From: an uncultured Eubacteriales bacterium
GTDB taxonomy: Bacteria > Acidobacteriota > Aminicenantia > Aminicenantales > Aminicenantaceae
Direction: 5' to 3'
NCBI GenBank assembly: GCA_964346815.1
Contig: CAYFWF010000003.1
Span: 181,559-245,558 of the forward strand
DNA length: 64,000 bases
Shown here piece by piece: positions 5,300-60,231 of this stretch. The notes below the pieces were generated by a model. The model worked only from the letters and a program-made list of their open reading frames with translations. It was not told where the DNA came from and did not search any database. Each line of letters starts with the position of its first letter. Position 1 is the first letter of the stretch. Both the position numbers and the translations under genes were made by a program.

Positions 5300-5300
5300 A

Positions 5301-30290: not shown

Positions 30291-30329
30291 TTTCTCCTCC
30301 TCTCGATGAACTCATTCACATGGATAAGC

Positions 30330-30348: not shown

Positions 30349-30429
30349 AATCCGGAGATTCCCGGACCAATATTGTAAAAGGCACTTTCCTGTATAGCGG
30401 CATTATATAAAATCATCCAATGAAATGAC

Positions 30430-30458
30430 AGATCCAACCTGGATATTCGAGGTTGGAT
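30430..30458. promoter_or_regulatory. inverted repeat GATCCAACC-N11-GGTTGGATC upstream of rhaB (candidate operator or 5'-UTR hairpin)
   Basis: Read directly; 9-bp arms; about 90 nt upstream of rhaB start. Confidence 0.3.
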
Positions 30459-30547
30459 CAAGAATTCAAGAGCGGAAGTTCCAATTTTAATTGACACAAA
30501 CAGGACAGTGTGATAAGTGGAGTCTGACGAGCAAGAGGTGTGCAGAT

Positions 30548-32020
30548 ATGGCTGTTTCCCGATATTTAGCTTTGGACTTGGGCGCCGAGAGCGGGAGGGC
30601 GATTCTCGGCTACCTTGACAGAGAGAGGCTGCAGGTCAAAGAAATCTCGCGCTTTCCCAATCGGATGCTTTCTATTCGTGGACATCTGTATTGGAATGTC
30701 TTCCGTCTCTTCGAGGAAATCAAGAAAGGAATGGAAATCTGTTTTACAGAGGCGCAAATTAAAAGCCTGGCTTTGGATACCTGGGGTGTCGATTTCGGTT
30801 TTTTGGCTGAGGATGGAACGATCATTGGCCTGCCATTTGCCTACAGGGACCCTCATACCAAGGGAAAAATGGAGGAATTCTTCGAAAGGATTCCGAAAAA
30901 TAAAGTCTATCGGCTGACCGGAATACAGTTCCTCCAGTTCAATTCCCTGTTTCAGTTGTTTGCCATGAAGAGGGACAAATCATCCCTTTTGGAAGCGGCC
31001 AAAGATCTTCTTTTTATTCCGGACCTCTTCAACTACCTTCTGACAGGACAAAAGAAAACAGAATTCACTTTTGCGACAACATCCCAGCTCTATAATCCGA
31101 GGAAGGGAGGTTGGGAAGAGGAACTTTTCGAAGCCCTGGAAGTCCCGAGTTCGCTCATGCAGGAGATTGTCCAGCCGGGTACGATTATTGGAGAATTGGA
31201 TGATGGAACGAGCCGAACTCATGGAGAGGATCCGGTGCCGGTGATAGCCGTGGCCTCACATGATACAGGCTCGGCAGTTGCAGCAGTGCCTGCCACCGGC
31301 CAGGACTGGACATACATAAGTTCAGGAACATGGTCGCTGATGGGGATCGAAACGCACGAACCGATAATCAATGATCAAGCGATGGAACTCAACTTCACCA
31401 ACGAAGGCGGCGTGGAGGGGACTTTTCGATTCTTAAGGAATATCACTGGACTCTGGCTCTTACAGGAATGTCGAAAGTCCTGGGCGAAAGAAAAGGCTTA
31501 CAGCTACGAAACACTGATGATCTTGGCGCAGGAGGCCCCAGCCTTCCAGTTCTTCGTCGATCCTGACTGGCAAGGCTTCCTCAGCCCTCAGGATATGCCC
31601 GAGGCTATTCATAAATATTGCAAAGCGACCAAGCAGAAAACGCCTGGTTCGCCTGGTGAATTTGTGCGGTGTATTCTCGAGAGTCTGGCACTGAAATACC
31701 GCATCGTGCTGGATCGATTGAGAGAGATTCATTCCCAGCCTATTCGGAAGGTTCATATCATCGGCGGGGGAGTTAAGAATGCTCTGCTCTGTCAGTTTAC
31801 TGCCAATGCCACTGGCCTTCCTGTATATGCTGGCCCCATAGAGGCTACATCGATCGGAAACATCATGATGCAGGCCTTCACCTTGGGAGATGTGCCTTCA
31901 GTAAGAGAGATGCGGGAGGTGGTTCGCCGCTCATTTGAACTTTCAGTCTATGAGCCTGAACATGTGAACGAGTGGGATAGGATTAAAGAGCAATATCTCG
32001 AGATTATTGGTATGGAGTGA
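30548..32020 (+). CDS. rhaB: rhamnulokinase (FGGY carbohydrate kinase)
   Basis: N-terminal FGGY motif YLALDLGAESGRAILG. Length about 490 aa, immediately followed by rhaA. Start set at MAVSRYL with AAGAGGTG SD; the ORF-track start at 30491 is an extension. Confidence 0.8.
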   Translation: MAVSRYLALDLGAESGRAILGYLDRERLQVKEISRFPNRMLSIRGHLYWNVFRLFEEIKKGMEICFTEAQIKSLALDTWGVDFGFLAEDGTIIGLPFAYRDPHTKGKMEEFFERIPKNKVYRLTGIQFLQFNSLFQLFAMKRDKSSLLEAAKDLLFIPDLFNYLLTGQKKTEFTFATTSQLYNPRKGGWEEELFEALEVPSSLMQEIVQPGTIIGELDDGTSRTHGEDPVPVIAVASHDTGSAVAAVPATGQDWTYISSGTWSLMGIETHEPIINDQAMELNFTNEGGVEGTFRFLRNITGLWLLQECRKSWAKEKAYSYETLMILAQEAPAFQFFVDPDWQGFLSPQDMPEAIHKYCKATKQKTPGSPGEFVRCILESLALKYRIVLDRLREIHSQPIRKVHIIGGGVKNALLCQFTANATGLPVYAGPIEATSIGNIMMQAFTLGDVPSVREMREVVRRSFELSVYEPEHVNEWDRIKEQYLEIIGME

Positions 32021-32024
32021 AGAT

Positions 32025-33305
32025 ATGGGAGATAGCAGAAAAATTGTAGAAGCCTTCAAAACAGCCAAGGAAATTTTCCGTGAAATAGGGGTGAATGTAG
32101 ACGATGCTCTAGAACGACTAAGCCAGATATCTATCTCTATACCTTGCTGGCAGGCGGATGATATCACAGGCTTTGAAAAGTCGAATGCACAACTGGAGGG
32201 GGGAGGCATTCAAGTCACGGGTCATTTTTTTGGAAAGCCTCGAACGATCGAAGAGCTGAGGATGGACCTCGAGAAGGCTTTTTCCTTGCTGCCCGGGCAT
32301 CACCGCTTGAACCTTCACTCGATTTATGGAGAATTCGGGACGAGTGAAGTCGGCCGCGATCAAATGGATGCGCGTCATTTCAAAGGTTGGGTAGAATGGG
32401 CCAGTCAAAAGAACATCAAGCTGGACTTCAATGCGACCTGCTTTTCTCACCCCCGAGCGGATTCAGGATTTACTCTGAGCAGCAAAGATAAGGGAATCCG
32501 CAGCTTCTGGATAGAACATGTCAAGCGCTGTCGCGAGATAAGTGCGTATATGGGACGAGCACTCGGCAGCTCCTGCATCCACAATCTTTGGATTCCGGAT
32601 GGGATGAAGGACATAACTATCGACCGAAAGGCCAGGAGATCCTTGCTGAAAGAGTCTCTTGAAGAAATATATTCTGACGATTACGACCCCAAGGAAATGA
32701 AGGATTCTCTGGAAAGCAAGCTGTTTGGAATCGGAAGCGAATCCTTTGTGGTTGGTTCCCATGAGTTCTATTTTGGATATGCTCTTTCCAAAGGAAAGAT
32801 GCTCTGTCTGGATGCGGGACATTTTCATCCTACAGAGTCTTTATCGGATAAAATCTCGTCTGTTCTCCTTTTCTTCGAAGAACTCCTTCTTCATCTCAGC
32901 CGGGGCATCAGATGGGACAGCGATCATGTGGTCATCCTGAATGAGGATATGAGGAGCATTGCCGAGGAGGTCATAAGGAGTGACGCTCTGGACAGGACCC
33001 ACATGGCCTTGGATTTTTTCGATGCCAGTATGAATCGGGTGGGGGCTTGGGTTATCGGAGCCAGAGCTGTCCTGAAGAGTTTTCTTTGTGCTTTGCTTCA
33101 GCCCGTGGAAAAGCTCCGCAGATTCGAGGAGGAGCGGGATTTTTTTTCCAGGCTCGCTCTTCTTGAAGAAATAAAAACTCTCCCTGTCGGTGTGATCTGG
33201 GATTACTATTGTCTGAAGAGGGATGTCCCGGTATCGAACCTGTGGATGAGAGAGGTCAAGCGGTACGAATCAGAGGTTCTCTACAAACGTCAAGGATCAA
33301 AATAG
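32025..33305 (+). CDS. rhaA: L-rhamnose isomerase
   Basis: SISIPCWQADDITGFE matches the E. coli RhaA PVSMHCWQGDDV region. About 426 aa. Start at MGDSRKIVEAF 5 nt after the rhaB stop. Confidence 0.85.
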   Translation: MGDSRKIVEAFKTAKEIFREIGVNVDDALERLSQISISIPCWQADDITGFEKSNAQLEGGGIQVTGHFFGKPRTIEELRMDLEKAFSLLPGHHRLNLHSIYGEFGTSEVGRDQMDARHFKGWVEWASQKNIKLDFNATCFSHPRADSGFTLSSKDKGIRSFWIEHVKRCREISAYMGRALGSSCIHNLWIPDGMKDITIDRKARRSLLKESLEEIYSDDYDPKEMKDSLESKLFGIGSESFVVGSHEFYFGYALSKGKMLCLDAGHFHPTESLSDKISSVLLFFEELLLHLSRGIRWDSDHVVILNEDMRSIAEEVIRSDALDRTHMALDFFDASMNRVGAWVIGARAVLKSFLCALLQPVEKLRRFEEERDFFSRLALLEEIKTLPVGVIWDYYCLKRDVPVSNLWMREVKRYESEVLYKRQGSK

Positions 33306-33770
33306 GCTCTTCACTAAATCAGCCAGATTTTGTGCATACTGTTTGCAGCATTCTTGCGCCCTCTCATCCGGAAAATCGATGGATACCGGTCCATAATGAT
33401 CGCCTCTATGGTCTCCCTGGATGATCATTCCGTGGATCAACAGCCCGTTGAGCAGATTAAGGACAGTTGTTTCATTTCCCCCTCCTACATTTGCAGCAGA
33501 AGAAAACGCTCCGCCAACCTTTCCCTTAAGCCTTCCATGGAATTTGATACTCTCATCCAAAAGCTTCTTGACCGGCCACGCCATCGATCCATAATAGGTC
33601 GGCGAACCCAGAACGATACAATCATAGTCGATCAGGTCGTCGGCCTTGGTTTCTTCCACTCTTTTCAGATCGACCGATAGATCTTCTTTTTTCATCACGT
33701 CGGTGATGATTTGGGCCATCTTCTCCGTGTTCCCTGTCTGAGAATAATAACATATCAGGACTTTTGCCAT
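33297..33770 (-). CDS. flavodoxin-family protein (WrbA/multimeric flavodoxin-like)
   Basis: KVLICYYSQTGNTEKMA (flavodoxin FMN-phosphate loop T-G-N-T) and LGSPTYYG motif. 157 aa. Confidence 0.75.
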   Translation of the reverse strand: MAKVLICYYSQTGNTEKMAQIITDVMKKEDLSVDLKRVEETKADDLIDYDCIVLGSPTYYGSMAWPVKKLLDESIKFHGRLKGKVGGAFSSAANVGGGNETTVLNLLNGLLIHGMIIQGDHRGDHYGPVSIDFPDERAQECCKQYAQNLADLVKSLF

Positions 33771-33785
33771 AATCTTACCTCCTGT

Positions 33786-35108
33786 TTACCATTTCTGGGC
33801 CTTTATAGGTTCCATTTTTCGCAGATTCAATCCTCTTTCATACGCTCCGCTTCGATAAAGACAAATTTCTCTTACCGACGATGGATGATGCAGGACTTCA
33901 GAGAGAGACTGAGATCCCACTCCCCAAACACCTCCCCCTCTCACAATCACTACCTTGTAATCATGAAGCTGCTCGAGAAAAGTCTCTATGTTGAATTTTG
34001 GTGGGAGAACAGGTATGGCGAGGTAAAGGTAGCTTCCCTCTGCATCGATAGGAATGACCCGGTCGAGCGGACGTCTTTCTCCCGGATAGATGAAGTGGGA
34101 ATGAGCCTCGGCTTCGGGAACCCAGCAGTGGATCACGGTTTGAAAATTTGTCTCTGCATAGATGGTTTTATGAATATCGAGTTCCCTGGTATCTCCTCTT
34201 TCTCGGCTCAGTGGGATTTCCAGGAGTGGGCCACCGATTTCTCTCGGCATGGAAGCCTTGGGAGAATAAAACATGGTTCTGACTCCGCGGATGGAGAAAG
34301 AGCCTGTATGGAAGGGAGACAGCCTCGATTCGAAGATCCTGGCTCCAGTCTTATGGAATTCCTTGATCAGTTCTTCTTCACGGGGGAAGTCACAGGCTTC
34401 ATCTCCTTGGATCGAGTATTCATCTGGAGGATATGTGAAATGGGCATCCGGGCCGGAATAAATTTTTTCCTTCAAGGAATCGACATCAACCTGAATTTTT
34501 TTCATGAGGCGTGAGATATAGCCTGCGTTGTTGGCCACACACTGGAGGAAAAATGCCTCTTTCAGTGTCCGCCCCTTGGAAAAAGCTCCATGCGCCTGCA
34601 CGAGTGTCACAGGATGACGGGAAAGCCTTTCCGGTATGACTCTGACCATTTTTGTTGAACCACTGGGGAGGGCGAACCAATCTACAGGGATGATACCGTC
34701 AAGATGGTAATACCCCAGAGGATCCACAGGATAAAAGGGCTTGGGCTGACCGGGCTTCGCTTCGTCATCGAGGGTGTCGATGATAAGATCCTTGGTATGA
34801 CAGTGCATCGAAGCGCCGACGTCTTTAAGAGATAAAATTTTTACGTGGATATCCGTCTCAGAGGAAGCTTTATAATATCCAAAATCCGTTTCTTTGAAAG
34901 ACGGAAAGCAGATATGTTCCCGCTCGAGATCTCCTTTCTGGGATCCCGTAGCTGTGATCGCCATCCTTTCCCTTCCCTTCTCATCCCTCCACCGCATCAC
35001 CATATTGCCGCAGTGGCTGTCCTGAATATCATACAAGAGCGAAGCCCGCCCGACAGTTTGAAACAACCGTACAAGTTCTTCGCTCGCTTTCCAGTAGTCC
35101 TTCCTCAT
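33786..35108 (-). CDS. tandem class II aldolase/adducin-fold protein (candidate rhamnulose-1-phosphate aldolase analog); second domain degenerate
   Basis: N-terminal domain has ITATGSQKGDL, MHCHTKD (H-x-H metal site) and VQAHGAFSKGRTLKEAF. Residues about 215-440 repeat the pattern as FYSPKASMPREIG, IHCWVPEAEAHSHF and VIVRGGGVWGVGSQSLSEVL, with the HG His replaced by Gly. Confidence 0.55.
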   Translation of the reverse strand: MRKDYWKASEELVRLFQTVGRASLLYDIQDSHCGNMVMRWRDEKGRERMAITATGSQKGDLEREHICFPSFKETDFGYYKASSETDIHVKILSLKDVGASMHCHTKDLIIDTLDDEAKPGQPKPFYPVDPLGYYHLDGIIPVDWFALPSGSTKMVRVIPERLSRHPVTLVQAHGAFSKGRTLKEAFFLQCVANNAGYISRLMKKIQVDVDSLKEKIYSGPDAHFTYPPDEYSIQGDEACDFPREEELIKEFHKTGARIFESRLSPFHTGSFSIRGVRTMFYSPKASMPREIGGPLLEIPLSRERGDTRELDIHKTIYAETNFQTVIHCWVPEAEAHSHFIYPGERRPLDRVIPIDAEGSYLYLAIPVLPPKFNIETFLEQLHDYKVVIVRGGGVWGVGSQSLSEVLHHPSSVREICLYRSGAYERGLNLRKMEPIKAQKW

Positions 35109-36949
35109 TTTATCTCATCGATCTTCAGAGATTTCACCAATCTTTCGGTGGGCCTCCCTTTTGCATCCCATTCTCTGGCCAGATAATAGTCGGCTCGCAG
35201 TCTTTCTATCAGGTCAGACGAAATCATTCTCTCTTTACTCCCGACCAGTATAGGCTCTTGCTGGAACCGTTCGGGAAGAGTATCCTCGTCCGACTCCAAT
35301 CCAGTTTCGAGGTTGAATATCCTCTCGAGAGTAGCTACGCGGTTAGCGATCTCTTCTAGCCTTGCGATAGAAAAATTCATCCCAGTGATGCCGCTCGCAA
35401 TACGGGCCCATGGGTCTGAAGAGAAGGCAAATCCTGTAAACCGGCATATCCCCAGACTATCTTGGATGATCCCCAGATTTTGCATGTTGCGAATAGCGAT
35501 GGGTGACTGAAGAATGCTGTACCGAGGAATCTCCTTTGTGCCTCCAAAGAAGGCAAGCGAGACCGCATATCCTCCCCTGAGATGGCAGGCTCCTGTCGGA
35601 GAGGTCATATAGCCCAAAGCCTGGGTAAACGAAGCCCTCGGATCATAAGCAGGGATCTCCATTTTTTTCACAGTCATGGCATATTCGGGATGCTTATAAT
35701 GTTCCGCCAAGCGGTGAGATCCCTCTGCTAATAAATCACCCATCCCTTCCCTAAGTGCGATGAGGTCCGCCATTTTCACCAGGATCTCTGCATCTCCGAA
35801 ACAGAGACGGATATCTTCCTTTATCTCTTGGGTTATAATCCCTTTTTCTGCAAGTTCCAGAGCACAAGCCAGCGTTCCCCCAAAGCTGATGGTGTCCAAT
35901 CCCAGCTCGTTGCAGCGGTAGTTCGCCAAGGTGATACTTCCCAGATCATAGATTCCACAATTCGGACCGGTCATCACGATTGTCTCGTATTCAGGCCCTT
36001 CTCCTTTTTTGTCACCCAGGCGGGTGTGACGCTGGCAGGCTAATGCGCAGCCGTAACAGGCTCCGGCTCGTTCGAGAATGGAGCGGTGCAAAGTCTCTCC
36101 CGATATTTGATCCAAATCTTCTTCTTCGTGAATATTGTTCTGAAAGTTCCGATAGGGAAGCATCTCGATGATATCGATGAGCTTTAGGAGTCCAGAGGTT
36201 CCCAGTTGCCGCAGGAGGCGCTTGGTAATGGGCGCTGATCTCAACAGATAGAGGGCTTGGTCGAGTCCGGAGTTAAAGCGTTCCTCGTCACATATCTGTG
36301 CTTTTAGCCTTCCTGACACTTGAATCGCCTTGAGGTTTTTACTGCCGAAGACGGCTCCCGGGCCTCCGCGCCCGTAGGCTCTGTTTTTATCGTTCATTAC
36401 AGAGGCAAAGCGGACTAGGCTTTCTCCTGCTGGACCGATGCAGAGTATGCGGGGGCGGTCGTTCGGGGCAGCATCCTGGGTCATTTGATCCGTTGTCTCG
36501 TGCACCTCCAATCCCCAAAGATGATTTTGAGGCACGATGTCCACATGATCTGGATGCACATCTATGGTTACAGGCTCTGAGGCCTTGCCTTTGATCACCA
36601 GAATATCATAACCGCTGGACTTGAACGCGTGAGCCCAGCTGCCTCCACAGTTCGAGCTTCCGATTAATCCTGTCAGAGGAGACTTGAAAACCATATGTCC
36701 CCTGCAAGCTGTCGGAGCGCGTGTCCCGATAAGAGGAGATGTGGCGATGACTATGACATTTTCACCACCGAGTGGGTCACACAGGGGATTGATCTCATCA
36801 AAGAAGATACGGGTAGCAAGTCCTCTCCCGCCCAGATAATGCTCAGCGAGGGACTGTCTCAAGGGTATTTCCCGAATCTCTCCTTTCGAGAGGTCGATTT
36901 CAAGGATTTTCCCGTGGTAACCGAACAGTATATGATCATTCATGAGCAT
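35105..36949 (-). CDS. aor: aldehyde:ferredoxin oxidoreductase family protein (tungsten/pterin AOR)
   Basis: N-terminus FGYHGKILEIDLSKGEI…YLGGRGL and overall 614-aa AOR architecture. True start may be the third Met (36943). Confidence 0.85.
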   Translation of the reverse strand: MLMNDHILFGYHGKILEIDLSKGEIREIPLRQSLAEHYLGGRGLATRIFFDEINPLCDPLGGENVIVIATSPLIGTRAPTACRGHMVFKSPLTGLIGSSNCGGSWAHAFKSSGYDILVIKGKASEPVTIDVHPDHVDIVPQNHLWGLEVHETTDQMTQDAAPNDRPRILCIGPAGESLVRFASVMNDKNRAYGRGGPGAVFGSKNLKAIQVSGRLKAQICDEERFNSGLDQALYLLRSAPITKRLLRQLGTSGLLKLIDIIEMLPYRNFQNNIHEEEDLDQISGETLHRSILERAGACYGCALACQRHTRLGDKKGEGPEYETIVMTGPNCGIYDLGSITLANYRCNELGLDTISFGGTLACALELAEKGIITQEIKEDIRLCFGDAEILVKMADLIALREGMGDLLAEGSHRLAEHYKHPEYAMTVKKMEIPAYDPRASFTQALGYMTSPTGACHLRGGYAVSLAFFGGTKEIPRYSILQSPIAIRNMQNLGIIQDSLGICRFTGFAFSSDPWARIASGITGMNFSIARLEEIANRVATLERIFNLETGLESDEDTLPERFQQEPILVGSKERMISSDLIERLRADYYLAREWDAKGRPTERLVKSLKIDEIK

Positions 36950-43323: not shown

Positions 43324-43599
43324 ATGAATATTTTTTCGCTTTTGCTCCTGCTTTTCATCGCATCTCTTGCTGGAGCGGTCGGGGCAAGGATTGCCGGAAG
43401 AAAGGGAATGGGATGTTTGGCTTCGATTGCCTTAGGCTTTATCGGAGCACTAATAGGCACCTTTATCGCCCGTCAGTTCGATCTTCCTCTTTTTCCTTGG
43501 ATAAAATTCGGATCTCAACCGTTTCCGATAGTCTGGGCAGTAATCGGAGCAGCTCTTTTCGTGGCATTCTTGAATCTTTTCAGCAGAACGCCAAAATAG
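43324..43599 (+). CDS. GlsB/YeaQ/YmgE-family small membrane protein
   Basis: 91 aa with the family's Gly-rich helices LLFIASLAGAVGARIAG…LGFIGALIGTFIA. Confidence 0.8.
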   Translation: MNIFSLLLLLFIASLAGAVGARIAGRKGMGCLASIALGFIGALIGTFIARQFDLPLFPWIKFGSQPFPIVWAVIGAALFVAFLNLFSRTPK

Positions 43600-43604
43600 C
43601 CGCA

Positions 43605-44783
43605 TTAAGAAAAAAGTGCCAGAACTTTTTTGTAGGTATTGGTCACTCCCCTGACTGCCCTTCCAAAGCATTTCTGTTTGAGCTTTACAGCATGAAACCG
43701 ACAGACTTCATGACAGCACATACAGTGTATGCAGCATGATCGGTCTATCGAGGCCGCCTTATCTTGTTTCCGAGCAGCTCCTGCAGGACAGATATCGACA
43801 CATTCCCAACAACCCGTGCATCTCTTTTTGATTATTTCAGGCATCAGTATCAGTTGATCTTGAACAAAGGCATGAAGGAAGGCTGGGATTCTTCTTCGGA
43901 TCAGCCCTACGGCGATAGAAGATTGTCTGAAATCTTTAACTCTGACATCCTGTATTTTCTCTCCGAGGATGTCGATCTTTTCTAACTGTCCGGTGCCGAG
44001 CCCCCTTTCGGACGCAAATTGGGTGGTCAGGACATCGAACGGATCCAGACCAATGATTTTGGATGCCACCGCATCCAAGGCTGGAGCGTCAAGGCTGGCG
44101 AGGATGAGATTCACTCTCTTGGGATTGCCCGCAGATGGTCCCTCTCCCTCCATCGCGACAATGGCGTCCATGATATTCAGATTGGGGGGTGCACAGGAAA
44201 AAATATCAACGAGCATCTGGCTGAAAAGCTCGTTTTTAAAAAATTGGCGGTGGTAGCTGCTCCGTAGACCATGTGGGATAATACCATACATATTTTTTAC
44301 AGCTCCAGTGAAAACTGTGAAAGAGTGTGTCTTTAATTTGGGGAGGTTGATGAGGTAATCTGATTCGAGCACGAGAGGGGAGACAAAGGCTTCTTTCAAG
44401 ACTTTCCCCTCTAATCTGATTCTTCTAAAGCCTGTTTCCTTGAGATTCACGAGACGAATACCGAGTTCGTTACAGAGCTCACGATAGCCTGAAATCTGGA
44501 ATCCGTTTTTTTGTTTTGCCTGGATGTCGTCTCCAACAGTGATTGTACACCCCATGTCCTTCAGGAGAAGAAGGACTTCCCTGGTGAATGCGGGATGCGT
44601 GACAATGGCTTCTTCAGGCGGCGAAGGAGGGGACAGGTGATTGATTTTGACGAAAACATGGGATCCTGGCCTTACGATATTTTCTAATCCCCCCAACAGG
44701 GAGAGCGCCTGAACCAGCGCTTGATGCAGGATGCCGCTCCGATACTTATGAATTCCTCGAAGAGAAACTTTTGCATGTTTCAC
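43605..44783 (-). CDS. DUF362-domain protein fused to a C-terminal 2x[4Fe-4S] ferredoxin domain
   Basis: DUF362 core NLPKLKTHSFTVFTGAVKNMYGIIP. C-terminal CTGCWECVDICP and CIHCMCCHEVC cysteine clusters. Confidence 0.65.
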   Translation of the reverse strand: MKHAKVSLRGIHKYRSGILHQALVQALSLLGGLENIVRPGSHVFVKINHLSPPSPPEEAIVTHPAFTREVLLLLKDMGCTITVGDDIQAKQKNGFQISGYRELCNELGIRLVNLKETGFRRIRLEGKVLKEAFVSPLVLESDYLINLPKLKTHSFTVFTGAVKNMYGIIPHGLRSSYHRQFFKNELFSQMLVDIFSCAPPNLNIMDAIVAMEGEGPSAGNPKRVNLILASLDAPALDAVASKIIGLDPFDVLTTQFASERGLGTGQLEKIDILGEKIQDVRVKDFRQSSIAVGLIRRRIPAFLHAFVQDQLILMPEIIKKRCTGCWECVDICPAGAARKQDKAASIDRSCCIHCMCCHEVCRFHAVKLKQKCFGRAVRGVTNTYKKVLALFS

Positions 44784-44946
44784 GATTCGCCGGGTATTAT
44801 ATCAAAGTCCCTTCCCTGATTTATAGTCGTCACTGGCAGACATCTGCTTCCCTCCGGATACACCTTGTCTGGCACCGAAAGCAATCCTCGCTGAGAGGGG
44901 AATGCTGATCCTCTGAGTTGACTTCCCGGCAAGAGTCTATTAGTGT

Positions 44947-46302
44947 TTGCCTATGAGCATCGGGATCATCGCTGGTGAAATCGCTTTTCTTCTTCTCGTT
45001 TTATTCTTTACCTGGTTTGCCGTCACCAGTCTTGCGGAAAAAGAGAGGAGAGCTTTTGCTCGGAGTCTTTTCTTTCTGTCAGGTGTTACCGCTGGAGCCG
45101 TCTTTCTGGTTCTGTTTCCCCTCCCGCTGAAGCCCTGGATAATGGGATTCATTGCGGTACTTGTGGGATTTTTTTCGCTCTGGCTTCTGTTGTCTCCAAT
45201 TCCGAAAAAATACCTGGAAGCCATTGGCGCACAAAAAAAAATCGATGAGAGAGATGTGATTTTTTCCCGATTCGATTATGAAGAAGGAAGTCCGATCCTG
45301 CAAGATTACTACAAAAGGCGTCCGGAGTACGAATCCATGGATAGAGAAATCAGAGAGCTGCCCGATCTTCTCACTCCTGCACACCAAAAAAAAGATCCCA
45401 TTCTTTTCTCGTTAGCAGATTCTGAGTTTGATTTTCTCGAGCATCAGCTCAATTTGGTTCAAGGGGAAAAAAATCCGAGAAGACTGGAACTCTCTTCTCC
45501 ACAGAACACCCGGATCGTCAAAAGCATCGTCAGATATTTGGGATCAGACCAGTGCGGCATTTGTCCGCTTGACCAGGCTTATGTCTACTCCCATGTAGGA
45601 AGGGGCCCCGAGCCTTACGGCAGAGAGATCAGATTAGATCATAAGTATGCCATCGTGTTTGCAGTGGAGATGGACCTGGCCATGGTCTCTTCTGCTCCCC
45701 GGTCTCCTGTGATCGCAGAGACGGCCAAGAAGTATGTCGAAGCTGCCAGGATATCTATCGTTACGGCCGATTTCATCAGACGTCTGGGTTATCCGGCAAG
45801 AGCTCATATCGCGGGCAGCAATTATCAATGCATGCTTCCTCCCTTGGGATGGATAGCTGGGTTGGGCGAACTGGGGAGACTTGGGATTTTAATAACGACC
45901 AAATATGGCCCTCGTGCGAGGTTGGGACTTGTCACAACTGATCTGCCGCTGATCGCCGATGAAAAAAAGGTATCGGGAATCCAGGAATTTTGTGAAAAAT
46001 GCCAAAAATGCGCCAGTAACTGTCCATCTCAAGCTATACCCTATGGACACAAAAAAGAGGAGAACGGGTCGCTTCGTTGGATACTGAATCGTGAGGAGTG
46101 TTACAGGTACTGGCGAAAAGCAGGGACGGATTGCGCCATGTGTATTTATGTGTGTCCCTACAGCAAGCCGGATAACTCCTTCCATAATTTCATCAGGAGA
46201 CTCAATTCCGCATCCTCCAGTGCTCAGACTTTGTCTGTTTGGGGAGATGATTTTTTCTATGGACGCGTCCCCTCGAGAAGAAAATCTCCGTTGTCGTTCT
46301 GA
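44947..46302 (+). CDS. reductive-dehalogenase/epoxyqueuosine-reductase (RdhA/QueG) superfamily Fe-S protein with N-terminal 3-helix membrane anchor
   Basis: Three N-terminal TM helices. VKSIVRYLGSDQCGICPLD resembles the RdhA/QueG ARFLGADLVGIA motif. C-terminal CEKCQKCASNCP (Cx2Cx2Cx3CP) and CYRYWRKAGTDCAMCIYVCP (Cx10Cx2Cx3CP), the spacing characteristic of RdhA/QueG. Confidence 0.6.
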   Translation: MPMSIGIIAGEIAFLLLVLFFTWFAVTSLAEKERRAFARSLFFLSGVTAGAVFLVLFPLPLKPWIMGFIAVLVGFFSLWLLLSPIPKKYLEAIGAQKKIDERDVIFSRFDYEEGSPILQDYYKRRPEYESMDREIRELPDLLTPAHQKKDPILFSLADSEFDFLEHQLNLVQGEKNPRRLELSSPQNTRIVKSIVRYLGSDQCGICPLDQAYVYSHVGRGPEPYGREIRLDHKYAIVFAVEMDLAMVSSAPRSPVIAETAKKYVEAARISIVTADFIRRLGYPARAHIAGSNYQCMLPPLGWIAGLGELGRLGILITTKYGPRARLGLVTTDLPLIADEKKVSGIQEFCEKCQKCASNCPSQAIPYGHKKEENGSLRWILNREECYRYWRKAGTDCAMCIYVCPYSKPDNSFHNFIRRLNSASSSAQTLSVWGDDFFYGRVPSRRKSPLSF

Positions 46303-52033: not shown

Positions 52034-55000
52034 ATGAAAATTTTTGTTTCCAGGATGGCTTTTTGTCTTCTCTTTATTTTTTTCCTGTTTCAAGGTCATG
52101 GTCTTGGAGCAGGGGAGAGAAAAGATGCAGATCAGGATAAATATTCGATCGAAAACCTTCCATTAGGTGCCATGAAATTCAGATCCATCGGACCCGCTCT
52201 GACTTCAGGAAGGATATCTGATTTTGCCGTAAATCCCCAGAAGAGAAGTGAGTATTATGTTGCCACCTCTTCCGGAGGTGTTTGGAAGACCACAAATGCA
52301 GGAACGACCTTCGAGCCGCTTTTTGACAGTCAAGAATCCTACTCCATCGGATGTATCACGCTCGATTCCCATAATCCCAATGTCATCTGGGTAGGGACTG
52401 GAGAAAACAACAATCAGCGCAGCGTTGGCTATGGGGAAGGAGTGTATAAATCTATAGATGGCGGAAAAACCTGGGAAAACGTGGGGCTCGAATCCTCAGA
52501 GCATATCGGTATGATCGTCATCGATCCCAGAGATTCAGATGTGGTCTATGTAGCAGCTTATGGGCCTCTGTGGAGTCCAGGAGGAGAAAGAGGTCTTTAC
52601 AAATCGATAAACGGAGGCAAGTCGTGGGATGCTGTGCTGACCATTAGTGAACATACGGGCATCAGCGAGGTCCATCTTGACCCCAGAAATCCTGATGTCA
52701 TCTATGCGGTCGCTCATCAAAGGCGGAGACATGTGTTTACCTTGATCGACGGCGGGCCCGAATCAGGTATTTACAAATCCTCAGATGCAGGAAAGACTTG
52801 GGAGGAAATAAACAAAGGTTTACCTGGCGGAGATCTTGGTAGGATTGGGTTAGCCATATCTCCGGCTGATCCGGAATTCATGTATGCAATTGTCGAAGCT
52901 CAAAGAGGCAAGGGAGGTTTTTACAGAAGCACGAATAGAGGAGCCTCTTGGGAACGGAGAAGCAGCTACACCTCCAGGGGAAACTATTATCAAGAACTGT
53001 TTTGCGACCCGGAAGATCCGCAGCGCGTCTATTCTATGAATGTCTATCTCCAGGTTACAGATGACGGAGGAATATCCTGGCGGAATCTGGGCGAGCGGAG
53101 CAAGCACGTGGACAATCACGCCATGTGGATCGATCCCCATGATACGGATTACTATCTTGTGGGATGCGATGGAGGGATCTATGAATCCTTTGACAGGGGA
53201 AAAACATGGAATTATATGCCGAATCTGCCGGTCACACAGTTTTATAAAGTCGCGGTGGACACTGCCGAGCCCTTCTATAATGTCTACGGCGGGACCCAGG
53301 ATAACTCCAGCATAGGAGGGCCCTCACGCACGACCAGTTCACATGGTATTGTCAATTCTGATTGGTATATCACTCATGGCGGGGATGGTTTCGAGTCTCA
53401 GATCGATCCCGAGGACCCGAATATCGTGTATTCTCAATCTCAGTATGGAAATCTGGTGCGTTTTGACAAAAAAAGCGGAGAGAGGCTCGGAATACAGCCC
53501 AAGGAAAGAAAGGGTGAAAAATCGTACCGTTGGAATTGGGACGCTCCGCTGCTGATCAGCCCTCACTCCCACACCAGACTCTATTTTGCCGCTAACAAGC
53601 TCTTCCGCAGCGATGACAGAGGAGGAAGCTGGGAGGTGATAAGTGAAGATCTGACGCGGCAGATTGACCGCAACAAGCTTAAGGTCATGGGCCGAATATG
53701 GCCGATGGATGCAGTGGCTAAAAATGCATCCACATCTCCCTATGGAACAATCGTTGCCCTGGATGAGTCTCCAGTCCAAGAGGACCTTCTGGTAGTGGGG
53801 TCTGATGACGGGTTGATCCAGGTCACAGAGGACGGAGGAAAAACCTGGCGGAAGATAGAAAAATTTCCTGGTGTGCCTGAGGGGACATATGTCAATGAAG
53901 TGCTGGCGTCTCAGCATGATAAAAATACAATGTATGCGGCTTTTAACGACCACAAAAACGGCGACTTCAAGCCCTATTTGCTCAAGAGCACAGATGCCGG
54001 AAAAACTTGGGTATCGATTTCTTCCAATCTGCCCGAGAGAGGATCGGTTTACGCTTTGGCTGAAGATCATATCGAAAGGAACCTGCTCTTTTGTGGAACA
54101 GAGTTTGGCGTGTTTGTTACTCTGGATGGGGGGAAAGGCTGGAAACAACTCAAAGCCGGTCTTCCCACTATCGCTGTTCGGGATATAGCGGTCCAGAAGA
54201 GGGAAAACGATCTCGTGCTGGCGACTTTTGGACGTGGATTTTACATCCTCGATGATTACACTCCTCTCCGGTTTCTCAATTCAGGTACTTTGGATCAGGA
54301 TACTTTTATATTCCCAATAAAAAAAGCTTGGATGTTTGAGGAGTATGGCCGCTTGGGTGGCGGAAATAAGGGATCTCAGGGAGAGATGTATTTTACAGCC
54401 GAAAATCCTCCTTTCGGGGCAACCATCACCTATTATTTGAAAGAAGATATTCAAACACTCAAGGAGAAACGGGAGCAGGAAGAAAAAAAAGCGATCAAAA
54501 ATAACCAACCGGTTTATTATCCTTCCTATGAGCAAATGAAGGCAGAACAGGAAGAAGAGATTCCCTTCTTAGTTTTTACTATTTTAGACGAAGAGGGATA
54601 TGTGGTGCGGCGGCTGAGGGAGAAACCAAAAGCCGGCATGCATAGAATGACCTGGGATCTCAGATATCCTGGCGCGGGTCCAACTTCCACAAGAGATGTC
54701 ATCCCAGCCTCGAGCGGTCCCTCAAGCACTTTCGTTCTTCCAGGAAAGTATACAATTTATTTGTCCAAAAATGTCAATGGAAAGGAAACAAAACTGACAG
54801 AGCCGGTGGGTTTCGATGTAGAGACTCTCGGCCTGGCGACTCTCCCTGCTGAAGATCGGGCCGAATTGGTGGCCTTCCAGAAAGAAGTGAGGGAGTTAAA
54901 CAGAGCGGTCCTTGCAGCTTCAGACATTGTTAGGGAACTCAATGATAAAATCCAGCATTTCAAGGTAGCTCTGAAGAGTATCACTACACAAGAAGCAGGG

Positions 55001-55330
55001 CTTCGTGCAGATATCCAAACCGTGGAACAAAAGGTGGCTGACATCCAAAGAAAGCTGTTCGGAGACAGCATCATGAGGCGAATAGACAGGGACGCTGAAC
55101 CAGGTCTGTATTCACGGATCAGAAGGATCATTTATGATCAGAGGCGCTCCACATCTGCCCCCACCCAGTCTCAAAGAGATGCCTACCAGATTGTGGCAGA
55201 AGAATTCCCTCCTGTTCTTGCGTCCTTGAAGAAAATCGTTGAGGAAGATATCAAGAAGATCGAGGATAAGCTCGAAGAAATAGGAGCTCCCTATACACCC
55301 GGGCGTCTTCCTGAGTGGAAGCGAAAATGA
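52034..55330 (+). CDS. secreted BNR/Asp-box repeat protein (sortilin/VPS10- or GH74-like double beta-propeller) with C-terminal coiled-coil region
   Basis: Signal peptide. Ten S/T-x-D-G-G-K-T-W Asp-box repeats read directly (SIDGGKTW, SINGGKSW, SSDAGKTW, STNRGASW, TDDGGISW, FDRGKTW, SDDRGGSW, TEDGGKTW, STDAGKTW, LDGGKGW). 1098 aa. Confidence 0.75.
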   Translation: MKIFVSRMAFCLLFIFFLFQGHGLGAGERKDADQDKYSIENLPLGAMKFRSIGPALTSGRISDFAVNPQKRSEYYVATSSGGVWKTTNAGTTFEPLFDSQESYSIGCITLDSHNPNVIWVGTGENNNQRSVGYGEGVYKSIDGGKTWENVGLESSEHIGMIVIDPRDSDVVYVAAYGPLWSPGGERGLYKSINGGKSWDAVLTISEHTGISEVHLDPRNPDVIYAVAHQRRRHVFTLIDGGPESGIYKSSDAGKTWEEINKGLPGGDLGRIGLAISPADPEFMYAIVEAQRGKGGFYRSTNRGASWERRSSYTSRGNYYQELFCDPEDPQRVYSMNVYLQVTDDGGISWRNLGERSKHVDNHAMWIDPHDTDYYLVGCDGGIYESFDRGKTWNYMPNLPVTQFYKVAVDTAEPFYNVYGGTQDNSSIGGPSRTTSSHGIVNSDWYITHGGDGFESQIDPEDPNIVYSQSQYGNLVRFDKKSGERLGIQPKERKGEKSYRWNWDAPLLISPHSHTRLYFAANKLFRSDDRGGSWEVISEDLTRQIDRNKLKVMGRIWPMDAVAKNASTSPYGTIVALDESPVQEDLLVVGSDDGLIQVTEDGGKTWRKIEKFPGVPEGTYVNEVLASQHDKNTMYAAFNDHKNGDFKPYLLKSTDAGKTWVSISSNLPERGSVYALAEDHIERNLLFCGTEFGVFVTLDGGKGWKQLKAGLPTIAVRDIAVQKRENDLVLATFGRGFYILDDYTPLRFLNSGTLDQDTFIFPIKKAWMFEEYGRLGGGNKGSQGEMYFTAENPPFGATITYYLKEDIQTLKEKREQEEKKAIKNNQPVYYPSYEQMKAEQEEEIPFLVFTILDEEGYVVRRLREKPKAGMHRMTWDLRYPGAGPTSTRDVIPASSGPSSTFVLPGKYTIYLSKNVNGKETKLTEPVGFDVETLGLATLPAEDRAELVAFQKEVRELNRAVLAASDIVRELNDKIQHFKVALKSITTQEAGLRADIQTVEQKVADIQRKLFGDSIMRRIDRDAEPGLYSRIRRIIYDQRRSTSAPTQSQRDAYQIVAEEFPPVLASLKKIVEEDIKKIEDKLEEIGAPYTPGRLPEWKRK

Positions 55331-57594: not shown

Positions 57595-58416
57595 TCATTT
57601 CCGACTCTTATCAGCCAGATAGGCTCTTTTGAGTGTGTCGCCTCTGACTCCTTGTCTCAAAGCCTCCAGGGCCAAAACTTCATCCGGCGGGATATTCCCC
57701 AGACAGACTTCGGGTCCAAAACGGATGATGAGCTCTTGCTGTTGGTTTTTAATCGGCGCTTCCCAGAGCAGTTGATTGGCATCGTCCACACCTGCAACGA
57801 TGTTTTCCATCTCATCTTTTTTGATCCTCCCATCTGAATCGAATATCCCCACTCCCCGGCCTGCTTCACGAGCTTCAATGATCACCTTAAAAGCTCCATT
57901 TTGAAGATCCTCTTTGATCAGCTTGTGAACAAGTGCAATCGGAAGAGCCTCTTTGGGATCTTTCTTGCCGACTTCAGTGATCACCTTAAATCCTTTCTCC
58001 AATGCTTTATTTATGATTTTTATTCTCATAACAGGATCCAATTCTATCGTTCCATCGGAAATCTCAACGGCAGAAAAACCCAATTCTTTAGCTCTTTCCA
58101 AATATTTCTCCTCATCTCCTTTCCAGAGCGCGATCTCAAGAAAGGTGCCTCCAGGCATAACATCGATCTGTGCTGAAACTAGAGCGTCAATTTTTTCTCT
58201 TAAGACCTCCTTTTCATAGAAAGCCGATGTCCCGAATGTCAGCTTGAGGACATCGATGTATTCTCCCGAAGTCTGGATGAGGTCTGTTATTTGATTCAAT
58301 CCCATCCCTTTATCGATCACCATCGTCAAGCCGGTCGTCCGGGGTTTCGAGGATCGGCCTTTGACTGGAATCTCGGTAACGCCTTCCCAAGCTTTGGTCA
58401 TTTGCCTTACCTCCAC
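57595..58416 (-). CDS. (2R)-phospho-3-sulfolactate synthase (ComA) family protein
   Basis: 273 aa. ComA-family core GLTMVIDKGMGL…DVLKLTFGTSA…GFSAVEISDGTIEL. TIM-barrel PEP-binding family. Confidence 0.7.
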   Translation of the reverse strand: MEVRQMTKAWEGVTEIPVKGRSSKPRTTGLTMVIDKGMGLNQITDLIQTSGEYIDVLKLTFGTSAFYEKEVLREKIDALVSAQIDVMPGGTFLEIALWKGDEEKYLERAKELGFSAVEISDGTIELDPVMRIKIINKALEKGFKVITEVGKKDPKEALPIALVHKLIKEDLQNGAFKVIIEAREAGRGVGIFDSDGRIKKDEMENIVAGVDDANQLLWEAPIKNQQQELIIRFGPEVCLGNIPPDEVLALEALRQGVRGDTLKRAYLADKSRK

Positions 58417-59520: not shown

Positions 59521-60231
59521 TTATTTAGTAGACGTGTGAAGAGCGCAGACGCCCAGAAAAAATTTTCGACAGACAACACGAGAAAACCCTGTATCTCTGA
59601 GAATCGAAGAAAATTCTTCAGGACCGTAAAAACGAGGGATGGTGAAAGAGAGATATCTGTAACCCGCTTTGGAACCCGAGAAAAGATAACCGACCGGTCG
59701 CACGGCCAATTTAACATAAGAATGAAAAATCTGTCTCAATGGTTTGAATGAGGGCTGGCTGGTTTCCAGGTTTAAAAAATGCCCGCCTGGTTTCAGTACC
59801 CTGAAAAATTCTTTGAGATAGAATTCCAGAACATTCATGCGTATGTTCAGATTCCGGGTGGCGAAAGATATGGTCACCAGATCGAAACATCCATCGGGAA
59901 AAGGGAGCGATCCAGCCTCGGCGATACCAAAAAAGATATTGGAACGGCGTCTTTTTTTCTTTGCTCTTTTCTTTGCTCTTGCCAGCATCGAGGCAGAAAA
60001 GTCGACAGCGAATATTTGGACCTCTTCGGCAGCACATCCTGAAAGACTATGGGCCATTTCTCCTGTGCCGCTGCAGACATCCAACCATAAGGTCCCACCA
60101 AGTCGAGAAGCCGTTTTGGCCGTTTTATGCCTCCAGAAAATATCCAGCCCGAAGGTCAATATATGGTTGATGACTTCATACCTGTGTGCAACATCTGCAT
60201 AGATTTTCTGAACGCCCTTCCTGACTCTCAT
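59521..60231 (-). CDS. class I SAM-dependent methyltransferase (UbiE/COQ5-like) with internal Lys/Arg-rich insertion
   Basis: SAM-binding motif I LDVCSGTGEMA and post-I acidic residue. Insertion RAKKRAKKKRRRS, partly generated by the 12-nt tandem duplication at 59956..59979. Confidence 0.8.
   Translation of the reverse strand: MRVRKGVQKIYADVAHRYEVINHILTFGLDIFWRHKTAKTASRLGGTLWLDVCSGTGEMAHSLSGCAAEEVQIFAVDFSASMLARAKKRAKKKRRRSNIFFGIAEAGSLPFPDGCFDLVTISFATRNLNIRMNVLEFYLKEFFRVLKPGGHFLNLETSQPSFKPLRQIFHSYVKLAVRPVGYLFSGSKAGYRYLSFTIPRFYGPEEFSSILRDTGFSRVVCRKFFLGVCALHTSTK
59956..59979. repeat. perfect 12-nt tandem duplication (TTTCTTTGCTCT x2) inside the methyltransferase CDS, encoding RAKK-RAKK
   Basis: Read directly from sequence; in frame on the minus strand. 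Confidence 0.8.

Follow-up and report, generated by a model that had tools for sequence, protein, structure and literature searches.

The locus analysed here, part of a stretch of 64,000 nucleotides (the window), carries a gene for a membrane-anchored iron-sulfur protein divergent from a DUF362-ferredoxin gene. It raised the question of whether this protein is a reductive dehalogenase homologue (RdhA) or an epoxyqueuosine reductase (QueG), which side of the membrane it faces, where its electrons come from and whether its neighbour is a partner. The two genes were located as follows:

44953..46302, + strand: rdh gene, encoding the membrane-anchored RdhA homologue (449 aa; the coordinates include the stop), 100% identical to the public gene call P0001
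43605..44783, - strand: divergent neighbour gene for a 392-aa protein, DUF362 (PF04015, E 2e-54) followed by a 2x[4Fe-4S] ferredoxin domain at the C-terminus

The initial annotation had described a 451-aa protein. This open reading frame exists (44947..46302, + strand, starting with TTG), but its length had to be corrected, since the public call begins at the ATG at position 44953, which aligns as start codon across 14 orthologous loci, while the TTG at 44947 is an upstream alternative start that is not conserved. By this alignment a protein of 449 aa is most likely, and the intergenic region therefore comprises 44784..44952. The three transmembrane (TM) helices, the sequence VKSIVRYLGSDQCGICPLD, both Fe-S motifs and the divergent DUF362-ferredoxin gene of the initial annotation were all found again. 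The gene maps of the window and of locus L001 showed no adjacent rdhB-like gene, in agreement with the initial annotation; the sole small membrane ORF nearby (43324..43599) encodes a Transgly_assoc/GlsB-type protein without E-x-E motif. More than 25 Aminicenantes species (54-78% identity) carried the rdh gene as a single copy within one and the same core-genome synteny, and no rdhK/R/C/T or other regulator gene was observed near it in the loci inspected. Such a stable single-copy position without an rdh regulator differs from classical rdhA loci. A MenG/UbiE gene scoring above its curated cutoff was found on the same contig, in line with the quinone link discussed below.

For the assignment to RdhA or QueG the catalytic core was analysed, with the following features:

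45493..46260, + strand: RdhA-type corrinoid-binding core and Fe-S domain, residues 181-436 (profile alignment, TIGR02486, Foldseek)
45733..45735, + strand: Y261, counterpart of the catalytic Tyr246 of SmPceA and Tyr426 of NpRdhA (alignments)
45919..45921, + strand: R323, counterpart of Arg305 of SmPceA and Lys488 of NpRdhA (alignments; invariant in 104/104)
45991..46026, + strand: first [4Fe-4S] motif CxxCxxCxxxCP, C347-P358, CEKCQKCASNCP (motif search; PF12838)
46099..46158, + strand: second cluster motif C383-x10-C394xxC397xxxC401P, here C-x10-CAMCIYVCP (motif search; all Cys invariant)

The RDH model TIGR02486 (NCBIfam) matched with 150.6 bits (E 9e-44), which is just below its curated cutoff of 160.35, and the target is a clear RdhA homologue, yet outside the curated boundary of this subfamily. 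Its core covered positions 86-305 of the model. The QueG model TIGR00276, whose cutoff is 200, scored 38 bits. Pfam scans yielded no match to PF13486 (Dehalogenase) at E <= 0.01 and none to DUF1730. By the RDH and QueG scores and the lack of DUF1730, the profile comparison proposed initially decided for the RdhA type. In phmmer searches of the PDB, NpRdhA (1e-42) and PceA (1e-34 and 1e-31) were far ahead of QueG (5d6s, 0.004). Using the family profile, RdhA structures were matched at 1.4e-73 (NpRdhA, residues 347-603), 2.5e-63 (SmPceA) and 4e-61, and QueG at 6e-11. The AlphaFold2 (AF2) model (pLDDT 94, pTM 0.92) gave 8q4h_A as best Foldseek match (1.2e-19); each of the top 36 matches was a PceA or NpRdhA structure (E 1e-17 to 1e-19), with a TMq of 0.64 for NpRdhA and of 0.35 for QueG (6e-06). 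Y261 was invariant in all 104 sequences of alignment A3, in each of the 105 representatives with or without TM domain and in 23 of the 25 members of the unclassified remainder. The conserved cobalamin site postulated before is supported by a predicted corrinoid-enzyme core with the catalytic Tyr/Arg retained (AF2, Foldseek, alignments), and the C-terminal Fe-S cluster pair by both motifs with every Cys invariant. Judged by these comparisons, in which the similarity far exceeds chance, the protein is an RdhA homologue, not QueG.

An ordinary QueG with a mispredicted start was also considered and rejected, since homologues keep the TM region and the start codon shared by the orthologous loci precedes it. 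That the gene encodes the organism's own epoxyqueuosine reductase is effectively refuted: common superfamily membership, the weak matches given above and a QueG label on a single JGI fragment from a related cluster are outweighed by a TIGR00276 score far below cutoff, the absence of DUF1730, RdhA structures scoring 30-60 orders of magnitude better, a TM region in more than 100 homologues and an active-site Tyr and Arg of the RdhA type. QueG (PDB 5D08/5D6S) belongs to the same superfamily and is a cytoplasmic protein with cobalamin and 2x[4Fe-4S], but the target is membrane-anchored and lacks DUF1730 as well as the HEAT-like tRNA-binding domain.

Rather than being a novelty, the architecture is that of a published class. 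Atashgahi 2019 described hybrid or transmembrane RdhA proteins (TM-RdhA) without Tat signal and rdhB, with three TM helices, two Fe-S motifs and, in the loop joining TM1 to TM2, an E-x-E motif, and Aminicenantes MAGs were already on the list (PMC6797604). Under the name "transmembrane respiratory RdhA-like" the class was later observed in 33 phyla including Acidobacteriota (PMC12219181). The target shows all of these traits, with E29-K-E31 as E-x-E motif. It shares 37% identity with RLB34449.1 over residues 5-449, i.e. the full length (E 9e-91), a protein from Table 1 of PMC6797604. At about 450 aa and with the same architecture, the target is no different in kind from RLB34449.1 and the class, to which it almost certainly belongs. 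Biochemical activity was reported for no class member (PMC6797604, PMC10624902, PMC12219181). The class has been known since 2019 and is widespread in sediment bacteria but still unexplained, and the target is another orthologue, an ordinary member of it. Three points are added here to what is known of the class: the topology, the conservation of quinone-pocket residues and the restriction of the DUF362 neighbour to Aminicenantes. In public databases TM-RdhA proteins, relatives of the target included, are often annotated just as "ferredoxin" or "4Fe-4S dicluster protein".

The orientation in the membrane was deduced from the N-terminal domain:

44959..45036, + strand: TM helix 1, residues 3-28 (Kyte-Doolittle; AF2 helix with pLDDT above 90), predicted by the positive-inside rule to run from outside to inside
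45037..45054, + strand: cytoplasmic loop 1 with the E-x-E motif, E29-K-E31-R-R33-A34 (conservation in TM-bearing members)
45046..45114, + strand: TM helix 2, residues 32-54 (Kyte-Doolittle; AF2)
45130..45192, + strand: TM helix 3, residues 60-80 (Kyte-Doolittle; AF2), predicted by the positive-inside rule to lead the chain back to the cytoplasmic side
45244..45252, + strand: D98-E99-R100 motif opening the soluble domain (invariant in 104/104 sequences of alignment A3)

The three helices of the initial annotation were recovered by hydropathy and in the AF2 model, and they are conserved family-wide: the TM region was kept in 102/104 aligned relatives and in more than 100 full-length homologues of about 447-460 aa, so that the N-terminus is no misprediction. 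D98-E99-R100 also forms the N-terminus of TM-less homologues (the Intestinibacter homologue begins with MHRTDERD). Among TM-bearing members, E29 was conserved in 102/102, E31 in 71/102, R33 in 84/102 and A34 in 95/102. Across the 102 members K+R averaged 3.25 in loop 1, as compared with 0.41 for the N-terminus and 0.63 for loop 2. This family-wide positive-inside charge bias suggests a catalytic domain in the cytoplasm, which we regard as very probable. New here is the consistent N-out/C-in topology predicted from these charges, as compared with the mixed TMHMM calls of the literature, where the C-termini of about half of the homologues were placed "exoplasmic" (PMC6797604).

A classical outward-facing respiratory dehalogenase, with an exoplasmic catalytic domain and energy conserved as in PceAB, would agree with these TMHMM calls, with the "respiratory" in the name of the class (PMC12219181) and with the PceB-like hairpin and quinone-pocket residues described below. 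Regex search and inspection of the target N-terminus, however, revealed neither a Tat motif (RRxFxK) nor any other Tat signal, in support of the initial annotation, and no Sec signal. A domain carrying cobalamin and Fe-S clusters cannot pass the membrane via Sec. The positive-inside bias is consistent throughout the family and places both loop 1 and the stretch that follows TM3 in the cytoplasm, and a differing orientation among orthologues is unlikely. Taken together, an outward orientation is highly improbable.

The initial annotation had further proposed a co-regulation of rdh and DUF362 through their short shared intergenic region. Two promoter-like elements were found there:

44918..44946, + strand: promoter-like footprint of rdh, TTGACT, 17 nt, TAGTGT (TTGAC and AGTTTATTA blocks conserved in 14 orthologous intergenic regions)
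44796..44801, - strand: hexamer TATAAT, read as ATTATA on the + strand and lying 12 nt ahead of the GTG at which DUF362 starts (conserved in 13/14 aligned loci)

The rdh footprint was not picked up by a scan with an E. coli-type consensus. Its end lies 6 nt ahead of the ATG, from which a leaderless or near-leaderless rdh mRNA is predicted. The hexamer carries a single mismatch in the one exception (L017). The spacer between the two elements varied from 72 to 369 bp in the 14 loci, and only the gene-proximal elements were conserved. The divergent arrangement itself was found in about 16 of approximately 24 Aminicenantes loci with upstream sequence; rdh was kept without DUF362 in seven loci (L009, L014, L015, L020, L022, L025, L047) and beside a truncated DUF362 gene in L002. 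Beside the TM-RdhA genes of Zixibacteria, of Desulfatiglandales and of four other metagenomic contexts no DUF362 gene was present. The proposed check of context conservation thus confined the pairing to Aminicenantes; it is a lineage-specific neighbourhood, not an obligate partnership.

A co-regulated two-gene unit with the DUF362 protein as electron donor or maturation factor could explain the frequent adjacency and the 2x[4Fe-4S] ferredoxin domain, and ferredoxins were reported beside some rdhA-like genes of cold seeps (PMC12219181). Nevertheless, synteny extends over the entire 10-kb block and takes in unrelated genes (peptidase, aminotransferase, glycosidase), and DUF362 is lost in about a third of the Aminicenantes loci and absent in other phyla. 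With the variable spacer and the separately conserved promoter-like elements, the co-regulation claimed was not supported, and a functional unit of both genes is quite unlikely.

A different electron donor was suggested by the C-terminus:

46165..46260, + strand: two C-terminal helices with K405, H411, R415, D432 and Y436 (HMM alignment to 8q4h_A; AF2 helices 409-420 and 422-436)

In the HMM alignment to 8q4h_A, K405, H411, R415 and D432 corresponded to K489, H495, R499 and D515 of DhPceA (chain index +48 = numbering in PMC10624902), with a high posterior probability for H411/H495 and R415/R499 and a lower, moderate one for D432/D515. In DhPceA these residues belong to the menaquinone pocket (PMC10624902). 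H411, R415 and D432 were invariant across alignment A3; K405 was invariant only in the Aminicenantes set A2, with a basic residue family-wide (H/K/R in 73/76). Ignoring phylogeny, pocket residues were conserved to 79-97% in 76 TM-bearing versus 21-62% in 29 TM-less representatives, while the catalytic Tyr and Arg, unlike the pocket residues, were still conserved in the latter. TM1, the E-x-E loop and TM2 aligned weakly with TMH2-E61/E63-TMH3 of PceB: searching the whole PDB with the TM-domain profile, PceB (8q4h_C) was matched at a marginal E of 0.066 with E29/E31 on E61/E63. The native score was reached by 0/5000 full and 3/5000 architecture-preserving shuffles, and a single-sequence search found no match. 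The conserved pocket residues and the PceB-like hairpin indicate a link with the quinone pool, which leaves the label "non-respiratory" of the initial annotation unproven. For quinol as electron donor we see about an even chance.

The comparison with characterized enzymes points in two directions. PceA2B2 of Desulfitobacterium hafniense TCE1 (PDB 8Q4H, PMC10624902) has the RdhA fold closest to the AF2 model and shares the catalytic Tyr/Arg and the four pocket residues; its PceB hairpin may be a further counterpart, at marginal significance. PceA, however, is Tat-exported to the P-side and bound to a separate PceB, while the target is one polypeptide; instead of a P-side catalytic subunit it has a domain without Tat signal, predicted to be cytoplasmic from the charge bias. 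An equivalent of PceB TMH1 is lacking, and TM3 is present as an extra connector. The catabolic NpRdhA (PDB 4RAS/6ZXU), the best sequence match (1e-42 by single sequence, 1.4e-73 by profile), is cytoplasmic without Tat signal, and its Y426, K488 and R552 align to Y261, R323 and R385. It differs in that it is soluble, measures about 700 aa, carries at its N-terminus a vestigial duplicate of the cobalamin-binding domain, and lacks the TM domain as well as H411 and R415 equivalents. The TM domain might be a mere anchor, and the electrons might be delivered, as they are to catabolic RdhAs, by a soluble donor such as ferredoxin, flavodoxin or, through a partner, NAD(P)H. The similarity to NpRdhA, the predicted cytoplasmic location and the TM-less homologues, which presumably function without a membrane, are in favour of this. 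It leaves the invariant E29 and the conserved E-x-E-x-R-A loop unexplained, as well as the conservation of H411, R415 and D432 specifically in TM-bearing members, and we consider it unlikely.

The reading we prefer, and hold to be moderately probable, is that of a TM-RdhA clade enzyme acting as a cytoplasm-facing menaquinol:organohalide oxidoreductase of the PceA2B2 type. It would be a reductive dehalogenase-type enzyme with corrinoid and 2x[4Fe-4S], anchored by its own polypeptide. Its N-terminus would lie outside, with TM1 leading inward to a cytoplasmic E-x-E loop, TM2 outward and TM3 inward again, and the catalytic domain would abut the membrane from the cytoplasmic side. Menaquinol would be oxidized in a predicted pocket formed by the C-terminal helices (K405, H411, R415, D432, Y436) and the TM1/E-x-E/TM2 hairpin, and electrons would pass via the two [4Fe-4S] clusters to cobalamin, where the substrate would be reduced with Y261 as putative proton donor and R323 as its partner. 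Since such an enzyme faces the cytoplasm, the protons of the quinol would be released on the N-side. Its role would be that of an electron sink or of a detoxifying or catabolic reductase, not of a terminal reductase generating pmf.

By homology an organohalide may be the physiological substrate, a proposal we judge to be evenly balanced. The dehalogenase-type Tyr/Arg pair is invariant, and marine sediments are rich in natural organohalogens (PMC12219181). On the other hand, a housekeeping reductase of the RdhA fold with another substrate, comparable to QueG with epoxyqueuosine, would fit the single-copy core-genome position, the absence of rdh regulators and the spread of the class over 33 phyla of non-organohalide-respirers (PMC12219181), and the literature names no substrate for any class member. 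This is possible, though rather less likely than not to apply. Quite tentatively, the TM-RdhA family might be an inverted, cytoplasm-facing descendant of the RdhA-RdhB quinol oxidoreductase module, with TM1/E-x-E/TM2 as the counterpart of PceB TMH2/E61-E63/TMH3 and TM3 as added connector. In Aminicenantes it would then act as a housekeeping enzyme, inherited vertically and expressed constitutively, which transfers electrons from menaquinol to a natural cytoplasmic or membrane-soluble substrate, not necessarily a xenobiotic organohalide, for redox balancing rather than energy-conserving organohalide respiration.

The locus itself adds little beyond one more orthologue, and it shows that the DUF362 neighbour is no general partner. 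Nevertheless, no other RdhA-like class is as widespread in anoxic sediments as the TM-fused RdhA homologues, which were reported from 33 phyla (PMC12219181) and whose genes are routinely tallied as "organohalide respiration potential". If the enzymes face the cytoplasm and are fed by menaquinol, these genes would stand for an electron sink or for a reductase that detoxifies, rather than for respiration that conserves energy, and the reading of metagenomic halogen-cycle inventories would change.

The rdh gene is arranged divergently to a gene encoding a DUF362-ferredoxin protein.

44947..46302, + strand: rdh ORF as read from a TTG codon, 451 aa
43605..44783, - strand: DUF362-ferredoxin ORF, divergent from rdh, 392 aa

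An ATG codon at position 44953 yields a protein of 449 aa (44953..46302). As this start corresponds to the public gene call P0001 for the rdh protein (100% identity) and is aligned across 14 orthologous loci, the 449-aa numbering was adopted. The protein shows three hydrophobic segments (AF2-predicted helices at residues 3-28, 32-54 and 60-80), a VKSIVRYLGSDQCGICPLD stretch and the two Fe-S motifs CEKCQKCASNCP and C-x10-CAMCIYVCP, while no Tat motif was found in it. All these features had been recognized in the initial annotation. The nearest named relatives belong to Candidatus Aminicenantes.

The proposal that this is an Rdh-like, self-anchored protein and not a QueG was borne out. Using TIGR02486 (RDH, NCBIfam), a score of 150.6 bits (E 9e-44) was obtained, slightly below the curated cutoff of 160.35, versus 38 bits for TIGR00276 (QueG), which has a cutoff of 200. 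Pfam detected only Fer4 domains in the protein, and close relatives are therefore named "ferredoxin" or "4Fe-4S dicluster domain-containing protein" in public records. Compared with PDB sequences, the single protein matched NpRdhA (1e-42) and PceAs (1e-34 and 1e-31) far ahead of QueG (0.004); the corresponding values for a profile of the 104-sequence family were 1.4e-73 for NpRdhA, 2.5e-63 for SmPceA, 4e-61 for DhPceA and 6e-11 for QueG. A first AF2 run on a shallow MSA (75 sequences, each at least 61% identical; pLDDT 66.6, pTM 0.57) was discarded. With 104 diverse homologues, including 74 added distant ones, a pLDDT of 94.0 and a pTM of 0.92 were reached. The best 36 Foldseek matches of this model in the PDB were to PceA or NpRdhA without exception, at E 1e-17 to 1e-19 and with TMq values of up to 0.64 despite the 90-residue TM domain in the query; the QueG match was found at 6e-06. 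Y261 aligns with the catalytic Tyr (SmPceA Y246, NpRdhA Y426) and R323 with the Arg/Lys of these enzymes (R305/K488). Both were found in 104/104 family members; among cluster representatives with and without TM segments, Y261 was present in 105/105 and R323 in nearly all. As profile, PDB, fold and catalytic-residue results all favour RdhA, neither an ordinary QueG nor a homologue lacking the corrinoid core describes the protein. The window's annotated ORFs of 220 aa or more (about 40) gave no match to the QueG/DUF1730 family, a scan outside of which stood the 1098-aa ORF 52034-55330 (BNR/sortilin-type on record).

The self-anchored architecture is an already published and widespread one. So-called hybrid putative RDases lacking a Tat signal and rdhB, with three N-terminal TMHs, an E-x-E in the loop between helices 1 and 2 and two Fe-S motifs, were described with about 70 examples, Aminicenantes MAGs among them (Atashgahi 2019, PMC6797604). 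Cultured hosts named in that paper include Caldithrix abyssi and Marinifilum spp. In a 2025 cold-seep survey, where they are named "transmembrane respiratory RdhA-like", they were the most widespread type, occurring in 33 phyla (287 genomes), Acidobacteriota among these (PMC12219181). Every defining feature of this class is present in the rdh protein, which shares 37% identity over residues 5-449 (E 9e-91) with RLB34449.1 from Table 1 of PMC6797604. A literature search for the activity of any class member found no report. The family comprised 2938 cluster representatives at a threshold of E <= 1e-3, and 437 when the threshold was tightened to E <= 1e-30. Among the best 150 representatives 61 carried three N-terminal TM segments, 20 carried two and 59 none, the TM-less ones having a median length of about 346 aa. 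Examples of the latter are the TM-less homologues of about 350 aa and about 40% identity from gut Peptostreptococcaceae (loci L035-L041), including that of Intestinibacter bartlettii DSM 16795 (L038, 7995-9059), which begin at the invariant DER motif. They retain the catalytic Tyr and Arg/Lys; in the Intestinibacter homologue all four residues resembling a quinone pocket in the rdh protein are changed (K405Q, H411K, R415K, D432N).

Co-regulation with the DUF362 gene had also been suggested. The DUF362 protein (PF04015, E 2e-54) carries a C-terminal 2x[4Fe-4S] ferredoxin domain, through which alone it matched solved structures; DUF362 and the LarA N-terminal domain belong to the same Pfam clan. 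Neighbours were mapped by tblastn of the window's neighbours on 47 related loci from species-representative genomes. In Aminicenantes a syntenic block became visible, consisting of aminotransferase, M20 peptidase, (OMP / small membrane protein), DUF362, divergent rdh, (0-3.4 kb insert), kynureninase-like, radical SAM and glycosidase genes. DUF362 was divergent from rdh at about 16 of about 24 loci with enough upstream sequence and absent from seven loci (L009, L014, L015, L020, L022, L025, L047). At L002 (7345-7791) only residues 244-392, the C-terminal ferredoxin portion, remain of it, next to an intact rdh gene. It was likewise absent beside the TM-RdhA of Zixibacteria (L030), of Desulfatiglandales (L032) and of four further metagenomic contexts, which differed from each other and contained no rdhB/C/K/T-like genes. 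An obligate partnership of rdh and DUF362 is thus unlikely.

A scan for E. coli-type promoters and terminators gave no match within the intergenic region, nor did it detect any terminator following the rdh gene. In its place, phylogenetic footprinting across 14 loci was used. The intergenic regions were alignable at their ends only, with a TTGAC...AGTTTATTA footprint directly 5' of the rdh ATG.

44918-44923 and 44941-44946, + strand: rdh promoter-like element, TTGACT and TAGTGT separated by 17 nt, ending 6 nt before the ATG
within 44781-44801, - strand: DUF362 promoter-like element from footprinting, TATAAT hexamer 12 nt upstream of the GTG

Between these two lies a spacer of variable length (72 to 369 bp) that contains no conserved element. 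Conservation restricted to the ends and a variable spacer provide evidence for two independent promoters and not for a shared operator. Taken together with the absence of DUF362 at many loci, these separate gene-proximal elements leave the proposed co-regulation unsupported. Because the promoter-like hexamers lie only 6 and 12 nt from the start codons, both mRNAs may be leaderless or near-leaderless; no Shine-Dalgarno sequence was evident before the rdh ATG.

Two further neighbourhood candidates were rejected. The first, a possible cryptic RdhB, was a 91-aa three-TM ORF (43324..43599); against it stood a Transgly_assoc match, the lack of an E-x-E, a position beyond DUF362 and its absence from many loci. 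The second was an operon of rdh with the downstream kynureninase-like and radical-SAM genes, which in other Aminicenantes are separated from rdh by unrelated genes spanning 1-3.4 kb. Such an insert at L010 (9505-12620; equivalent gaps at L009, L013, L021, L023 and L029) contains genes for an NHL/transglutaminase-like lipoprotein and for a class-V aminotransferase bearing a Tat signal, and the window is without it. The Desulfatiglandales MAG contig L032 encodes a TM-RdhA whose loop motif reads ERE and a second soluble 327-aa RdhA-like gene (480-1892 and 5269-6252), additionally an aldehyde:ferredoxin oxidoreductase; a further copy was found on L042 of the same MAG.

The window represents core-genome housekeeping, with SAM synthetase, AdoHcy hydrolase, an aminoacyl-tRNA synthetase, a RimO-like protein, a Zn ABC transporter, a rhamnose cluster and AOR. 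Rfam detected neither a cobalamin riboswitch nor any other RNA family in it, and no tRNAs were found. The rhamnose utilisation cluster (27630-36949) comprises alpha-L-rhamnosidase, FGGY kinase, RhaA isomerase and class II aldolase and is directly adjoined by a tungsten-type aldehyde:ferredoxin oxidoreductase, which may oxidize lactaldehyde. A ComA phosphosulfolactate synthase of archaeal type (57595-58416, - strand; equivalog TIGR03849, 341 bits versus a cutoff of 280) is encoded in this bacterial genome, followed by a 339-aa ORF (58420-59439, - strand) without Pfam or NCBIfam match. A URO-D family protein (24724-25782, - strand) was only weakly similar to MtaA/CmuA corrinoid methyltransferases, scoring 49 bits versus a cutoff of 244. 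No Pfam match at E <= 0.001 was obtained for the ORFs 1096-1854 (+ strand, 252 aa) and 26069-27430 (+ strand, 453 aa), the latter also lacking an NCBIfam match.

For 102 TM-bearing relatives, K+R counts averaged 3.25 in loop 1 and 4.35 over the 20 residues that follow TM3, compared with 0.41 at the N-terminus and 0.63 in loop 2. By the positive-inside rule an N-out/C-in topology with a cytoplasmic catalytic domain is predicted. Sec cannot export a domain that has already taken up cobalamin and Fe-S clusters, and the absence of a Tat signal hence agrees with a cytoplasmic domain. In the 2019 paper, roughly as many TMHMM calls were "cytoplasmic" as "exoplasmic" (PMC6797604). The family-level charge statistic argues for one orientation of the whole family.

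In DhPceA2B2 the menaquinone head is located between two C-terminal PceA helices and TMH2/TMH3 of PceB and contacts K489, H495, R499 and D515. A role in carrying protons has been proposed for two residues of the PceB TMH2-TMH3 loop, E61 and E63; in the same cryo-EM paper the fused enzymes were considered probably related structurally to this complex (PMC10624902). Profile alignment to 8q4h_A (chain index +48 for the numbering of PMC10624902) placed these four contacts on K405, H411, R415 and D432, with a high posterior for H and R and a moderate one for D. H411, R415 and D432 were invariant in the 104-sequence family alignment (A3), invariance of K405 being limited to the Aminicenantes set (A2), whereas soluble NpRdhA has Glu and Ala in place of H411 and R415. 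Using percentages that ignore kinship, H411, R415, D432 and Y436 were found in 89, 79, 92 and 97% of TM-bearing representatives (n=76), compared to 41, 21, 62 and 62% of TM-less ones with complete N-termini (n=29). Y261 and R323 were kept in both groups alike.

All 102 TM-bearing sequences have E29, which sits in a loop conserved as E-[KR]-E-x-R-A. A single-sequence phmmer search of the PDB with the TM domain alone gave only chance GPCR matches. With a 30-sequence TM-domain profile, PceB (8q4h_C) ranked 4 of 177,635 sequences at a marginal E of 0.066, TM1-loop-TM2 covering PceB residues 39-84 with "tSllErekRA" on "SSFSEREYQA" and thereby E29/E31 on E61/E63. The native score was reached by 0/5000 full shuffles of the PceB fragment and by 3/5000 shuffles preserving its TM-loop-TM pattern. 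The profile alignment and the shuffle controls suggest that the fused anchor may correspond to PceB TMH2-loop-TMH3. TM3 would then be an added connector by which the chain returns to the side on which the E-x-E loop lies, and nothing in the rdh protein would match PceB TMH1; three TMHs are common to PceB and the rdh anchor, yet they would not be colinear equivalents.

A MenG/UbiE methyltransferase gene (59521..60231, - strand) lies 13 kb from the rdh gene without linkage to it. As its product exceeds the TIGR01934 cutoff (188.5 versus 158.35 bits), the organism probably makes menaquinone, which bears on a quinol as electron donor. The most economical model would be a PceAB-type quinol oxidoreductase module turned toward the cytoplasm. 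In this orientation quinol protons would be released on the N-side, and the enzyme itself would build no proton gradient. Three computational inferences may go beyond the cited papers: one cytoplasm-facing orientation throughout the family, a correspondence between the anchor and PceB TMH2-3, and the conservation of quinone-pocket residues together with the TM domain. Finally, rdhA loci of organohalide respirers are mobile, multi-copy and regulator-linked, whereas the rdh gene is stable, single-copy and free of regulators among housekeeping genes, and for this reason the physiological substrate may be other than a xenobiotic organohalide.
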